From NCBI GenBank assembly GCA_040217195.1, contig JAVJNR010000010.1, positions 17,964-81,963 of the forward strand: DNA of 64,000 bases, given 5' to 3'. This DNA is from Leptospiraceae bacterium (GTDB lineage: Bacteria > Spirochaetota > Leptospiria > Leptospirales > Leptonemataceae). How positions within the stretch are numbered: the first letter of the stretch is position 1; every line of letters begins with the position of its first letter. Made by a program: the position numbers. This document shows positions 1 through 64,000 of the stretch, piece by piece.

Positions 1-3000
1 GCTGTCAGAGAGGACTGCCTGCATCTTATCCGGACCTGAATTGATCTGCTGGCTGTGCAGGGATACCTGACAGATGTAGAGGCCGTCTCCGGCATCGATC
101 AGGTTCACCTTTGCCTTGCGGTATTTTGAGCGCCATTCCTGGGCGACCATTTCCTGAGTGACCTTTTCGCTCGTTTCGCCACGGATGTAGGAGAGATCCT
201 TGAGGACCGTATTTTCGGAGATCCCGATTTCCGGTGCAATCTCTCTCACTCTCTTTCGGGTTATTCGGGCCTCCAGGTCCCAGAACTCCGGCGCGATTCT
301 CTCATAGATGCGGTTGCGGATCCTGCGAGTAACCGACTGCCGACCGGTGTTGGATCGAATGAGCTTTCCTATGCTGCTTTTCAGGGGGATATCACGGATC
401 TTTCCGGGGATCCTGATCCATTCGAGCAGTTTGCAGGCCTTGACCCGTTTGTGTCCGGAGATTATATATCCTTCTCGGTTTACGAGAATCGGCTCTTCCA
501 GGCCATCCCGGGCAATGGAAGCGGCCAGATTCTTGATGAATTGTGCACTGGCCTTGAATATGTAATTGTCTGGATGCTCTTTGAGATCGGCGATATCCAG
601 ATCCACGACCTTTTCGGCATGGTGGCTCTTCAATGTGTTCTGCCTCCCATACCCGGTATTCTTCTGATTTTTTCGTTTATCGGGCAATGTCTCGACTGGC
701 AATGTTCTTCGCTCCTGATCTGTATAATTCAATCTCCGGGATGGCGTCCTTCCCACGAACCTCCGATCCACCCGCATACTGGATATAGGCGCAGGCTACT
801 TGGCCATGTCCGCAGCAGGCGTTGATTGCTCCGGGAATGTGCCCAATGCAGCCATCAAATCCTTCAGCGGTTCGATTAAGGCCGCAAAATCCGCACGGCC
901 GGGATTGCCATTCATTGGTTGTGAGTGCATCGTTATCGAGGTAGCGATACTGCTCGCCGTCCCAGTAGATTGGGTGGCCTCTAAGCAGCCCATCGCTCCT
1001 AACTGGCATTGATTCCCCCCGGGTTTTCTCCACTTGAAAGGCCGAGGTCTATCTTTGCCCGGCGCAACATATCGCCCATGTCTTTCGCCCGGGGATCGCG
1101 CTTATTGTCTATGTCCGCACAGGCATCCGCGTGAGCCCAGCCAACTCCGTAGATGACTGCTTTGGCTATCTGCTGCTCCAGCCTATCCAGGCACTCCGTC
1201 GTCGGGTAGATTCCTTCCGGCGAAGGCGTATCGAGCATTTCACTGACGATCCTTGAAAGGTCTCTTCTCCAATCTGTTACACTTAGAGTTTCTTCATTCA
1301 TTTCTTTTTACCATCCTTTCATTACTAATGGTTCCAGCATGGCTGCCTCTCTATCGAGGCCATGATCCAGAAGCCAGAGCCACTTATCTCGAACCGCAAT
1401 CTGCTTATCATAGCATTGCGGGTTTCCTGGCCATGAGTGCCAGAACCGGTGGAGCGTTGTTATCCATTCGGGATCATAGGCGCAGTAATCCCGATGCGGA
1501 AATCTTCGGGGGAGCAGATGCGCTGAATCGCAGGGCTTCCCGCCGGTCTTTCTGCAGCGGCCCCCGTTCAGCTTCTTGCGTTTCCGCATTGCCCATTCGG
1601 TCTTCATGGAGAGCTTTGCGAACTCCGGGAAGTCCGGGTATATCTCGGCAAGGCGCTGGGAGTGCGTCAGGAGCATACCGGTACCTCTATGCGCTCCATA
1701 AGAGTCTTGATTACTTCGGCGGCCAACGCCGGGACTATGGCATTCCCATAGGCGCGCAATCGTCCCATTCTTGCGCGTATCCCATGAGCCATCGGGCTAA
1801 GCCCGGATTGTATTGGCCTCGGCCTACCAATGGGGAAGGGGATGCGGTCAAATCCGTCCCAGGGGCCAGACCCGCTATCGCAGCCTGTCGTGGGAGCTGG
1901 TCGAGGCGGACTCGGGGGGATCCGTCCGGGTTGACTCCGGCAATGCTCTGCCCCGGGGAGTCTTTCCAGTCCCGTGCTGCCGGTGTTACCCAGCCACCCA
2001 ACAAACCAGAGTCGCTGTCTGATGTGCGGTGCGCCGACGCTACAAGCTGGTAGTACTGTCGCCCCCGTGGAGTAACCTTCGTCTTCCAGTGTATCGAGTA
2101 GATCATCGAGCCAGGAGTCCCGGTCGACTGCAGCGGCAACCTGTTCACCAAAGATGACAGAAGGCCGGAGGGCTCTGACCAAACGAATCCATTGGGGGGC
2201 AAGGTGCCTTTCGTCTCTGATTCCCGCCTGTCTTCCAGCAAGGGAGAACGGCTGACATGGTGGTGATCCGGTAAAGACGGGCCGATCATCCGGCCATCCT
2301 GCCTGTCGGAGGGCAAGGCTCCAGCCTCCGATTCCAGCGAAGAAGTGGTGCTGTCGATACCCGGTAAGGTCGTTTGCTCTGACATCCGCTATGCTCCTAG
2401 TGTCCACGTCGCCGTCGGCTATGAGCCCTTCATCTATGAGATTCCGGAGCCATTGTGCGGCGAAAGGGTCTATTTCATTGTAGTATGCCGTCATTGTTAT
2501 CTCGCATGCACGAAATCGGGGAAAAGATCCTGCTGACCGAGGGCCTTCTGGCAGGCCGGATTCAGCCAGAGGCACTCGATTCTCTCATTTCGCTTGTTGT
2601 CTCTGGTTCGCTTTTCGACTCGCTTCCACCCAGCTCGCTCAAAAGTGATTTCGTAGAGCTTCGATGGATAGCCGCAGAGGACGATCATGGAGAGGCTTTT
2701 TCGGAGCCTGAGAAATAGAATGAAGTGCTCCCAGATGCTCATCATCTCATGTGTGTAGGCTCTTCCGGCCTTGCGGCAGATTCCCAAATAGGGAGGATCG
2801 ACGAAAAAGAGAGTCTCGGGGCTGGAGCACTCCTTGAGGAGCTTGCCATAGTCCTTGCTTTCGATTACCACTCCCCGAAAACGCATTGCAGTCCGGTACA
2901 AGGGCCGAAGGTCTGCAAACATCGAGGCCGGTCGGTATCCGCCGCTGGAGAATACATTTCCATAAGACCGGAATGAGCCACCCGCCCGGTTATTGCTCAT

Positions 3001-63000: not shown

Positions 63001-64000
63001 TAGCAATCGCATCGCCGGAGGTGGATACATCCAGCAAACGGCGAATCAGCTCATTCTTCAGGGAGACGGACTCATCCGCAATCCAGAAGAAATCGAGTCC
63101 TTGCCGTTGAAGCAACTTCCGGATCTGACAACACTTCGCGTGGGTGACGTGGCCTCGGTGGGCAAAGATAAGGAAATCCGCACCGGAGCTGCAGTGGTCA
63201 ACGGACAAGAGAGGGTGCTGGGGACGGTATTTATGCTTCTGGGAGAAAACAGCCGCACTGTCTCTTCCCGGGTAGACGAACGAGTCAACGAAATTCGTAA
63301 GACCCTTCCAGAGGACGTGGAGATCAAAACACTCTACAACCGATCCTATCTTGTGGATGGCACCATTGAGACGGTGCAGGAGAACCTGGTCTTCGGCGCG
63401 CTGCTGGTGGTGGTGGTTCTGCTACTTCTTACCGGGAATTTTCGGGCTGCGATCATCGCTTCGGCCGTAATACCGCTGTCTATGGCGGCTACATTGATTT
63501 CTATGTATGTCACCGGCGTTTCAGCGAATCTCATGAGCCTGGGGGCCCTGGACTTCGGTATTATAATCGACGGCGCAGTTATCGTAATCGATCAATGCGT
63601 GCACAGTGTGCAATCACGTGCCTCCACCGAAGGCAGGACTCTAAGTCGATCCGAAATCAAATCTGCCGTTGCAGAGGCTTCTATCCAGATTCGCCGGGCT
63701 GCCGGATTCGGTCAGATTATAATCCTGGTTGTTTTTCTGCCTATTTTTGCGCTTACTGGTATTGAAGGTAAAATGTTTCGCCCGATGGCCGCCGCGTTTT
63801 GCTTTGCTCTATTTGCAGCGTTCATTCTTGCTTTTACCGTGGTCCCTGCACTGGCCGGTACTTTTTTGCGCGGGCATGCGCCCAGGGAAGGTATGTCCCT
63901 TTTTGGTTTTCTGGACCGGGGATACAGTTACCTGCTTTCGCGGGCTCTACAAAAAAGAACCCTGATCGTGGGGCTTTCCCTTTTGCTGCTCGTTTTAGGC

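Follow-up and report, generated by a model that had tools for sequence, protein, structure and literature searches.

How do a myovirus gene set, a plasmid partition system and a metal-resistance cargo come to share one replicon in a marine Leptospirales genus, and does that replicon behave as a phage, a plasmid or both? The question is raised by contig C9 (81,963 bp) of a Leptospiraceae bacterium, most of which forms the window, the 64,000-nucleotide stretch of DNA analysed here; feature coordinates are collected in the table. The contig ends carry a 141-bp repeat, but contig C8 has an end repeat of equal length, so we take that of C9 as assembler overlap, which rules it out as a terminal repeat or att site and makes the identical ends, correctly reported before, weak evidence of closure alone. 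Closure is borne out by the czcA reading frame, intact across the circular join, by the G035:C2 and G037:C1 copies, which are opened elsewhere on the circle, and by a 74,756-bp contig from run X12 that bridges the end and start of C9. The closed circle of about 82 kb described by the first-pass annotation thus stands, at 81,822 bp, as does its higher GC content (53.1% versus 48.2-49.4% across the nine remaining contigs of the genome); the tetranucleotide profile correlates with the chromosome at r 0.82, against 0.99 or more. On this computational basis, C9 is best described as a circular extrachromosomal replicon.

Table. Features of the window and of the remainder of C9 (window positions unless marked as contig positions).
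Feature	Position	Strand	Remark
Window	1..64000		contig 17,964-81,963; 78% of the 81,822-bp circle
Early region	1..11532	-	includes a ParB-like protein and two DNA methyltransferases
O-like initiator	5804-6628	-	early region
Exonuclease	7137-7967	-	early region
RecT-like annealase	7964-8998	-	early region
Antirepressor (Ant)	9794-10534	-	early region
Control region	11511..14085		repressor candidate and XRE-IrrE/ImmA fusion
HTH repressor candidate	11511-11957		weak profile match
XRE-IrrE/ImmA fusion	12270-13439		control region
Baseplate and head genes	15575..28530
Baseplate protein	16467-18347
Baseplate J	18434-19582
Protease-like	23935-24801
Major capsid	25557-26978
DarB-like (2260 aa), zeta-toxin-like kinase (472 aa), 483-aa protein	28555..38476	+
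Tail and portal region	39642..52908
Tail sheath	40629-42404
Tail tube	42433-42867
Tape-measure candidate	44374-46281		putative
Fibres	46564-49922
Portal	49929-51560
Lysis cluster	52945..55102	+	small membrane proteins, putative holin/spanin candidates
Amidase endolysin	54323-55102	+	lysis cluster
parB	56107-56880	-
parA	56877-57596	-
parS candidates	56798-56820 and 57495-57517		two identical 23-bp palindromes
HTH_36 plasmid Rep candidate	58232-58867	+	divergent from parA
ZIP/ZupT-like transporter	58883..59677	-	below family cut-offs
orf138 and czcC-like outer-membrane factor	59932..61684	+	czcC-like 60377-61684, OEP domain
CzcB-like, His-rich	61662..62315	+	217 aa
czcA 5' half	62354..64000	+	CusA/CzcA heavy-metal RND permease, 1048 aa in total
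czcA 3' part	contig 142-1641		reached across the circular join
Outside the window	contig 1-17963		czcA 3' half, SDR, repeats, SBF, hvfCBA, mer operon, terminases

The myovirus gene set reported earlier was reproduced (large terminase, 3.2e-84; major head, 3.2e-97; sheath, 1.3e-80; portal, baseplate and fibres), as were the RusA, RecT, exonuclease, Ant and ParA (3.8e-41) calls. A 22-residue motif is common to the DarB-like methyltransferase/helicase, the zeta-toxin-like kinase and the 483-aa protein. A sigma-70 promoter and terminator scan, by a method blind to 19-20-bp spacers, gave no excess over shuffled sequence. Plasmid functions lie at the edge of the cargo: parAB sits beside an HTH Rep gene, as in LE1-like phage-plasmids according to the accessible part of PMC4338851, though rep is divergent here, and the 23-bp palindromes occur in all five phage copies and on none of the nine other contigs of the host genome. 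The O-like gene that had been named as initiator is present, but the plasmid initiator is likely the HTH gene next to parAB instead. As the earlier reading held, C9 has no detectable integrase: none was found among 95 chosen ORFs in a Pfam scan, and six-frame searches of C9 with PF00589 (tyrosine) and PF00239 (serine recombinase) returned no match; nor did a dif consensus match C9. G026, a genome of another genus, has a syntenic relative that is integrated next to ftsZ, encodes a tyrosine integrase and gave no ParA match. The Rep cluster spans 242 contigs, the longest of 86,935 bp; the family name Leptonemataceae is that of the first-pass annotation, the cluster itself carrying only the NCBI labels 'Leptospiraceae bacterium' and 'Spirochaetaceae bacterium'.

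Could such a circle be a domesticated plasmid that makes no cargo-bearing particles, its cargo being spread by a conjugative helper, transformation or generalized transduction? In IMG/VR both close copies are entered as 'provirus' fragments lacking most of the cargo, and G035 contig C1 has a tyrosine recombinase, so that the genus may harbour further mobile elements. However, ten virion genes contain no stops and show pN/pS of 0.02-0.07 at pS 0.14-0.27 in five well-covered comparisons, strong protein-level conservation which indicates intact genes kept by purifying selection. The G035 copy differs in its fibre region, and no relaxase or conjugation Pfam was found among the 95 scanned ORFs. Its 82 kb is also within the family range, as the LE1-like prophages vB-LliZ_VAR010-LE1, vB_LinZ_10-LE1 and vB_LbrZ_5399-LE1 are given as 79-103 kb, several of them circular, in the accessible text of PMC4758666. 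We consider domestication unlikely, and infer that the cargo is transferred in virions.

Five phage copies were found, in five of the seven genomes of the genus. Those of G035, G036, G037 and G040 are 92.8-97.2% identical to C9 overall and 97-99% over the par-czc segment; the chromosomes mostly share 70-80% identity in two 20-kb stretches. The comparison with L071 and L072 covers 18-20 kb of each. Over the czc genes pS is 0.003-0.07 and parB is 100% identical; a czc pN/pS of 0.83 versus G035 rests on 14 changes and says little on selection. In G036 the hvf-mer unit matches at 100.0% identity, against 80-95% in windows of the tail region. The first-pass annotation had the G036 terminase and island on different contigs; the island is nevertheless on a phage contig, C23, flanked by phage lysis, par and rep genes on one side and phrog_3738 on the other. 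Likewise, mer and hvf had been thought missing from G035 and G037. This holds for G035, which has one repeat copy and no unit, but the G037 haplotype carries mer/hvf, which rules G037 out as a natural empty or excised form and marks their absence from its assembly as a collapsed-repeat artefact. In place of a single patchy island there are two cassettes, czc in all five copies and mer/hvf surely missing only in G035.

That one true host's phage was binned by chance into several species, making the cross-species spread an artefact, we regard as quite improbable. The hosts appear to be metagenome bins, the composition of C9 is unlike that of the host chromosome, the same haplotype appears in runs X5 and X12 from different studies, and 143 ambiguous bases in G037:C1 are a sign of mixed variants; yet five distinct variants occur in five genomes of one genus, one of them a 4-contig assembly, no high-identity copy occurs in the 35 other family genomes, and the cargo contains an operon of the genus type along with the remnant of an IS related to those of the host. 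A search for a CRISPR spacer link in the host genome gave no perfect short match.

The metal cargo measures 14,557 bp (14.6 kb, not about 13 kb as first stated) in two blocks. Block 1, present in all five copies, runs ZIP, orf138, czcC, a short CzcB-like gene, czcA and a truncated SDR; the ZIP/ZupT-like gene occurs in 5 of 42 family genomes, always on the phage. Scanned separately, the two halves of CzcA fit TIGR00914 best (587 and 476 bits), and the predicted CusA/CzcA permease and outer-membrane factor account for two parts of the czcCBA-type pump claimed earlier. The third does not stand as claimed: the 217-aa CzcB-like protein has no membrane-fusion-protein match in Pfam or NCBIfam, and a full-length fusion protein seems absent from block 1. 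Of CzcB, the short protein seems to retain just the membrane-proximal adaptor domain, with CzcB_C as its top Atlas match (0.94, 169 shared features) and adaptor-containing entries as five of six fold matches, at Z of only 2.2-4.0; Foldseek gave no match at E<=0.001 and a PDB sequence search nothing significant. Such a protein may be unable to bridge CzcA to CzcC. Of its 37 relatives 36 have 94-281 aa, and the short form recurs in chromosomal copies within the family. A chromosomal operon orf138-czcC-short czcB-czcA-SDR (385 aa) is found in G035 and G036, and block 1 is, to judge from sequence, an operon captured from the host lineage.

Block 2 holds SBF, hvfCBA, an IS3 scar and a merR-merTP-merA operon of Bacteroidota type. 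MerA, MerTP, HvfA, HvfB and HvfC all pass NCBIfam cut-offs, confirming the identities first proposed. For the hvf genes, NF050137, NF003818 and NF050145 are exceeded by the EGKCG-repeat precursor, MNIO and DUF2063 partner expected of such a RiPP cluster, while the full-length HvfA model NF050188 stays below cut-off; no DoxX Pfam, common but not universal in HvfABC clusters, was found among the cargo ORFs scanned. HvfB had no match among 50,697 GenBank phage records. In two studies, RNA runs yielded contigs that match hvfBA and merR at 0-2 differences across their covered length; an RNA library may contain DNA, and contigs of this kind give no expression level. They give little or no cover of contig 9968-18500, on the terminase side, which we do not read as silence.

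Does the operon act mainly on another metal or an oxidant? The merR-family protein, with Cys83/118/126 present, scores best against ZntR (106 bits; MerR, 87), passes no cut-off and is nearer the ZntR, CueR and CadR models than MerR. Against this, MerA scores 495.7 on TIGR02053 (cut-off 454.45) and carries the NmerA CxxC, the CVNVGC motif and the C-terminal CC, corresponding to the redox cysteines and C-terminal cysteine pair by which the accessible part of PMC8261052 defines MerA; its best solved relatives are mercuric reductases, and MerTP reaches 272.8 on NF033556 (cut-off 180), as a mercury transporter should. Another substrate is hence highly improbable, and a narrow-spectrum mer operon is predicted. 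The MerA cluster spans 168 contigs, the longest of 86,935 bp, and its named neighbours, 70-74% identical, are all Bacteroidota.

The hvf-mer unit is 7.3 kb long and flanked by 252-bp imperfect direct repeats, copies of the phrog_3738 3' end that are patchworks of two alleles in four sequences. Neither transposase nor resolvase was found on C9; the unit's borders are the direct repeats, and the one IS trace, an IS3 scar, lies inside. Short-read graphs do place the unit on a contig of its own (7,113 bp). That it is a separate circle of 7.3 kb, or was joined to the phage by mis-assembly, is scarcely credible and already largely refuted, since the unit is joined to phage DNA in C9, on both flanks in G036:C23 and on its left flank in two metagenome loci, lacks a Rep, and has the depth of the backbone (27.8 versus 27.4; 13.4 versus 13.3), with the shared repeat node at about double.

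Taken together, these results make a temperate myovirus related to LE1, which is maintained as a plasmid prophage and carries two metal cassettes, the probable account, in keeping with the original proposal of such a phage common to species of one genus. We envision that it persists as a circular plasmid through Rep, ParA/ParB and parS, without integration, and passes between species by infection. Both cassettes would sit in one cargo slot, with rep on one side and the virion gene phrog_3738 on the other: an older czc cassette taken from the host-lineage operon, its SDR gene cut, and a younger hvf-mer unit that homologous recombination at the 252-bp repeats, via phage RecT/exonuclease or host RecA, may add, remove or transfer between phages sharing one host. 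In the lysogen, to go by family membership, MerTP would import Hg(II) and MerA reduce it to Hg(0), HvfB/HvfC would modify exported HvfA at its six cysteines and so make it a chelator of copper, CzcA/CzcC would export divalent metals and ZIP would move Zn-type ions. Metal stress would favour lysogens and may have driven a sweep of the par-rep-cargo block across a variety of virion backbones.

A wider reading is offered tentatively, as one that falls somewhat short of probable. LE1-like phage-plasmids might be a main mercury-resistance vehicle in non-Leptospira Leptospirales, with mer acquired at least twice from different phyla, Bacteroidota-type here and Tn501-like in G004:C22, and with a lineage whose transposon-free, recombination-driven cassette slot includes a metallophore RiPP cluster found on no phage in the searched collections; species barriers would be crossed at sea, and virus catalogues would miss the cargo, trimmed as host DNA or split at repeats. 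G004:C22, from another genus, is a distant LE1-like element with an unrelated mer operon; merA occurs in 8 of 156 genomes of the order, on an LE1-like contig in three of the eight, and 26 LE1-like elements are counted in the order. In IMG/VR, scans with two to six peptide patterns, whose absences are therefore weak, gave 0 loci for MerA alone, the MerA alignment and the HvfB alignment, one for phrog_3738 and two for the capsid. MerA had 53 matches among GenBank phage records, mostly unannotated or host contigs; the one examined is SJ1, compared below.

C9 is a clearly delimited example of a temperate phage of marine bacteria, apparently intact, that carries both a complete operon for mercury reduction and a RiPP cluster for metal binding, and there is sequence evidence that it swept recently through host species and phage backbones alike. 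This opens lysogenic conversion to metal resistance, and a phage share in ocean Hg(II) reduction, to testing. It also illustrates how cargo stays hidden, as IMG/VR copies break off where the cargo starts and the repeat-bounded unit goes missing from short-read bins. A new rep-par module is offered for a genetically untouched branch of Leptospirales, and the minimal CzcB-like adaptor merits a structural look.

How does C9 compare with known systems? LE1-like circles with efflux cargo and a P1-like element with a Tn21 mer operon are known already, and phage-borne spread of metal resistance is not the new route it was first taken for. Precedents are vB-LliZ_VAR010-LE1, with about 22 kb that hold several efflux pumps in the accessible part of PMC3493377, a viral contig with mercury-resistance genes figured in 10.1101/2020.07.14.203604, and Salmonella phage SJ1 (P1-like, Punavirus; OQ595196). 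SJ1 shares repA, parA, parB and a full mer operon with C9, but is a 24.5-kb remnant without most virion genes, and its Tn21-type mer (MerA 36.5% identical) lies among IS26, IS1 and IS5075, whereas the C9 phage appears intact and its cassette is free of transposase. Our literature search, to which subscription journals were mostly closed, found nothing on the C9 phage or on mer in LE1-like phages. Unlike Tn21/Tn501 transposons, the unit has no transposase, resolvase or terminal inverted repeats. It shares the MerT-MerP fusion of Bacteroidota merR-merTP-merA operons (NF033556), and between its MerA and each of the next 119 clusters listed identity is 68-77%, those with a name being from Cyclobacterium, Algoriphagus, Flavobacterium, Sphingobacterium, Bacteroidales and further Bacteroidota, but the unit lies in a spirochaete-lineage phage under a ZntR/CadR-like regulator. 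The hvf genes resemble Haemophilus hvfABC (oxazolin) and Buf_EGKCG clusters in their exported EGKCG-repeat precursor, MNIO and DUF2063 partner; they differ in lacking DoxX, in six contiguous EGKCG units and in being phage-borne. Modified Haemophilus HvfA binds six copper ions (PMC11252979, accessible part), and some bufferins sit in mercury-detoxification clusters (PMC12452194, likewise in part). Compared with CzcCBA/CusCBA pumps, C9 has the permease, the outer-membrane factor and the order C-B-A, but its B protein seems to lack hairpin, lipoyl and beta-barrel domains. Among the prophages, vB_LinZ_10-LE1 likewise carries HlyD and two RND permeases, but the RND proteins of LinZ_10 and LbrZ_5399 share only 25.6% identity with C9 CzcA, and LinZ_10 has no mer or MNIO cluster within the region examined; an RND pair occurs on 2 of 10 further capsid-bearing contigs tested.

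LE1 itself (Saintgironsvirus; NC_048892) differs in gene-block order, in GC content (36% against 53%), in having SbcCD and a helicase where C9 has RecT/exonuclease, and in its lack of annotated metal cargo. C9 Rep and ParB are without detectable homology there (Rep and the LE1 initiator, both HTH proteins, had no match in a comparison by BLASTP only), and C9 rep is divergent from parAB. At the DNA level only 932 bp align, at 66-68%. Phage genera are delimited at about 70% whole-genome nucleotide similarity, and C9 would fall outside Saintgironsvirus. The kinship first claimed from the terminase is nonetheless upheld: the enzyme is 55.5% identical to that of LE1 and 53.3% to those of three LE1-like records, with the next listed below 30%. 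In a set of 72,556 plasmids, 12 matched the C9 capsid protein, each of them from Leptospira. LE1 also has parA beside an HTH initiator and is a circular plasmid prophage, as the accessible part of PMC4758666 describes it. Matches to LE1 extend to 26 of 97 C9 genes (terminase 55%, DarB-like 43%, baseplate J 42%, portal 35%, sheath 34%, capsid 32%), and this homologous head, tail and terminase module appears to place C9 with the LE1-like phage-plasmids.

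The circle read by the first-pass annotation as an LE1-type phage-plasmid with metal cargo (contig C9 of genome G000) is a real element with better support than before: its anatomy, in silico circularity, phage–cargo linkage, presence in several species bins and selection on its virion genes are all shown. C9 measures 81,963 bp (GC 53.1%) and its ends overlap by 141 bp. The overlap was set aside as sole proof of closure, since contig C8 of the same genome shows an equal one, leaving it a mark of an assembly loop only. CzcA does run in frame across the junction, as first proposed, and has 1048 residues counted from its ATG. 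Phage copies in sister species are opened elsewhere, near contig position 56,200 in G035:C2 (76,615 bp) and near 9,895 in G037:C1 (75,035 bp), and in sequencing run X12 a single contig starts on the terminase side and continues across the join to position 1 of C9. Closure into a circle is thus real, in silico. C8 is itself a second closed circle (234 kb, 141-bp overlap) of chromosome-like composition; it encodes ParA plus a paralogue of the MNIO protein and may be a second chromosome.

Ninety-five ORFs picked by hand were scanned against Pfam and PHROGs, and 23 against NCBIfam; the Pfam/PHROGs scan reproduced the earlier gene list, and C9 further encodes a major capsid protein (window 25557-26978, 3.2e-97), an amidase and an XRE-IrrE regulator. 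The claimed lack of an integrase also held: six-frame searches returned no tyrosine integrase or resolvase on C9, G035:C2 or G037:C1; they found integrases elsewhere in all five genomes searched and resolvases in three. A similar 22-residue basic motif occurs within window 28555-38476 in a 2260-aa DarB-like protein (twice), a 472-aa zeta-toxin-like kinase and a 483-aa protein; this pattern, not found in LE1 or G026, may be a capsid-loading tag of ejected anti-defence proteins. A DUF3800 gene (window 55240-56025) and a DUF6338 gene (14575-15468) at module borders are possible defence or moron genes.

Features of C9 in contig coordinates (window position = contig position minus 17963; parts beyond the window read from locus L001)
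Feature	Contig position	Strand
Block 1: ZIP, orf138, czcC, 217-aa gene, czcA, SDR	76846 to 2372	
czcA 3' half	1-1641	+
Truncated SDR	1638-2372	+
Left repeat	2465-2716	
Block 2: SBF, hvfC-hvfB-hvfA, presumed IS3-type scar, merR-merTP-merA (repeat unit 7,291 bp)	2717-9755	
SBF	2710-3660	-
hvfC	3977-4705	-
hvfB	4778-5659	-
hvfA	5706-5963	-
Presumed IS3-type scar	6249-6614	
MerR-type promoter (TTGACT, 20 bp, TACATT)	6709-6740	
merR	6745-7215	+
merTP	7312-7926	+
merA	7928-9580	+
Right repeat	9756-10007	
phrog_3738 gene	9762-10859	-
SLT	11153-11722	-
Large terminase	14920-16632	-
Small terminase	16610-17194	-
RusA	17197-17571	-

LE1, the Leptospira myovirus with an 80-nm capsid (PMC6078989), matches 26 of the 97 C9 genes at 22-55%; DNA-level alignment covers 932 bp only, which argues for a shared broad family and different genera. 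Relatives of the capsid protein are present in 26 of the order's 156 genomes, and 12 of 72,556 plasmids match it, all from Leptospira and 77-142 kb long. Outside the genus, the closest relative is in G026 (capsid 59%). It shares the virion genes yet sits integrated next to ftsZ, carries a tyrosine integrase and yielded no ParA hit; the virion module thus combines with either a plasmid or an integrated lifestyle. The G026 prophage (C1, ~111-190 kb; L062-L066) also carries a TROVE protein, a dCMP deaminase and SbcCD, and is adjoined by a type I restriction system. In C9, parB-parA is divergent from an HTH_36 gene of 211 aa. A 23-bp palindrome lies in parA and an identical one in parB; the pair is present in all five phage copies and on no other G000 contig. 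Since an HTH rep adjoins parAB in leptospiral plasmid prophages (PMC4338851), we infer that the HTH_36 gene, which has no BLAST similarity to the LE1 initiator, would be the plasmid initiator and the O-like gene the lytic one. Within a small ORF between parA and rep, C9 has an extra 90 bp (window 57669-57758), bounded by a short repeat and not in G035, G036, G037 or G040.

Both cargo blocks carry putative metal functions. The order orf138-czcC-short gene-czcA-SDR recurs chromosomally on G035:C4 and G036:C27 (CzcA 76%), where SDR has 385 aa; because this order matches and the phage SDR aligns up to residue 221 only, block 1 was captured from the host lineage, which in turn supports the host assignment of the phage. 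Of 42 family genomes, 5 have the ZIP gene, each time on the phage. The 217-aa protein has no family match; its best Atlas cluster holds CzcB_C in 78% of members (0.94), and 36 of 37 relatives span 94-281 aa. When the modelled C-terminal 126 residues (pLDDT 81) were compared with folds, five of six rows were adaptor-containing entries (Z 2.2-4.0), aligned mostly at both chain ends. It is probably an adaptor with the membrane-proximal domain only. In this czc subfamily the B gene usually encodes a short CzcB-like protein (window 61662-62315; G000:C6:101337-101693; family loci L008-L011) that apparently keeps that domain only; its C-terminal end is an invariant EAFGASGSGHGH in 8/8 aligned sequences.

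Block 2 lies between 252-bp direct repeats (87.3% mutual identity) that are copies of the phrog_3738 3' end, and it contains no transposase. At 73-78% identity, its scar matches each end of a host IS (rve and HTH_Tnp_1 domains), which we take to be IS3. G035 has a single repeat copy and no hvf-mer unit; in G040:C291 the unit is missing at the junction, and the contig ends soon afterwards. The absence of mer and hvf reported earlier for G037 is an artefact of a collapsed repeat. G037:C1 variants (27 in contig 1-2497; also 2594, 2603, 2682-2684) recur in runs X5 and X12, where a 7,113-bp unit contig lies at backbone depth and a shared 103-bp node at 1.6-1.8 times backbone; and metagenomic locus L072 (CEWJ01029960.1, 82,218 bp) shows 100.000% identity with G037:C1 along 18,330 bp, then continues into SBF and hvf. 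The repeat copies of L072, of metagenomic locus L071 and of G036 are patchworks of both C9 alleles, which demonstrates exchange between repeat alleles; since phage Rad52-like recombinases accept diverged substrates (PMC3945230), the phage RecT would be its likely agent. Both IMG/VR copies are classed 'provirus', with ends at gene boundaries before or inside the cargo.

C9 MerA scores above its cut-off with catalytic motifs kept; its closest structure is 5x1y, its named neighbours are Bacteroidota at 69-74%, and its cluster lies on 168 contigs (longest 86,935 bp). The mer regulator is ambiguous. RNA-run contigs from two studies span hvfBA and merR. In both studies the former end at 5977, 14 bases ahead of hvfA, and the latter begin at 6747, directly past the -10 box, a weak hint of two transcripts.

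MerA exceeds its cut-off in 7 of 156 genomes of the order, with G004, from a different genus, an eighth in pieces; merA lies on an LE1-like contig in G000, G036 and G004. G004:C22 (81,961 bp, five short N gaps, no end repeat) has an LE1-like module matching 28 of 97 C9 genes (capsid 37%), a parA-parB-HTH rep and an XerC-like recombinase, and its merR-merTP-merA sits between the genes for the small and the large terminase. MerA of this element shares 35-50% identity with that of C9 and is closest to structure 1zk7 (507 bits), presumably Tn501 MerA. In the assembly a frame change plus an N gap divide its merA, which may be broken; on each side of the gap the sequence is contiguous with phage genes. 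In G026, phage and merA are on separate contigs, and the merA genomes G013, G028, G029 and G148 have no capsid match among those listed. These comparisons point to two independent mer gains by LE1-like elements. The G004:C22 mer operon (~51.7-56.5 kb, L099) is unrelated to that of C9 and lies between 34-bp imperfect direct repeats (51708-51741, 56436-56469). The G004 element further carries a HINT-domain protein, a ketoacyl synthase and a TolC-like gene.

The par-rep-czc region is shared at 97-99% with G035, G036, G037 and G040, hence by five of seven genus genomes (the other two are 77-78% complete), and at high identity by none of the other 35 family genomes; chromosomal alignment over two 20-kb stretches is mostly at 70-80%. 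Infection would presumably underlie this host range. Between C9 and G035, identity is 82-96% over contig 12-69 kb and reaches 98-100% over 72-82 kb and in those parts of 0-12 kb that both have. Ten virion genes contain no stops and are under selection (pN/pS 0.02-0.07, pS 0.14-0.27 in five comparisons; pN/pS 0.17, from 9 changes, in a sixth); for czc genes pS is 0.003-0.07, and parB does not vary. We read this as a working, presumably packaged phage population recently swept by the par-cargo block. L001:1500-11400 is present at 0.93-0.94 in 16 DNA runs (5 studies), nine labelled marine metagenome. Datasets X1-X4, of 5 Mb each and all under different organism labels, carry this stretch. Runs X5 (organism E) and X12 (marine), from different studies, share one haplotype; such recurrence may reflect wide clonal spread or a shared contaminant. 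Weak matches (66-85%) to the phage SLT-LPD3 region on G039:C256 and G038:C36 suggest more diverged relatives in these two genus genomes, which have no close copy. Among the strain-specific genes in variable regions of G035:C2 and G037:C1 (L043-L047) are those for an ankyrin protein, a DUF4376 fibre-associated protein, a Panacea antitoxin and a PIN-domain protein.

Among known systems, L. licerasiae LE1-like prophages are circular by PCR and include ~22 kb with efflux pumps (Ricaldi et al., PMC3493377), and Fouts et al. (PMC4758666) tabulate further LE1-like elements; the LE1-like LinZ_10 has an HlyD-RND-RND cluster, and SJ1 is a P1-like remnant with mer of Tn21 type. A figure in 10.1101/2020.07.14.203604 shows a viral contig from groundwater whose metal-resistance genes include those for mercury, and lysogenic soil phages carry metal-detoxification genes (PMC13037928, whose main text lacks merA and czc). 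Spirochaetes MerA is listed in PMC8261052 (n=3); the terms phage and Leptospira do not occur in the searched text of PMC11308531. HvfA chemistry and copper binding are described in PMC11252979, and 2025-2026 preprints favour a thiooxazole structure; no MNIO cluster occurs in 50,697 GenBank phage records. Against this background, what is new comprises the host group, the near-identity across species, transposon-free mer on an intact phage, the slot bounded by repeats, the presence of an MNIO cluster on a phage, and the two apparently independent mer gains.
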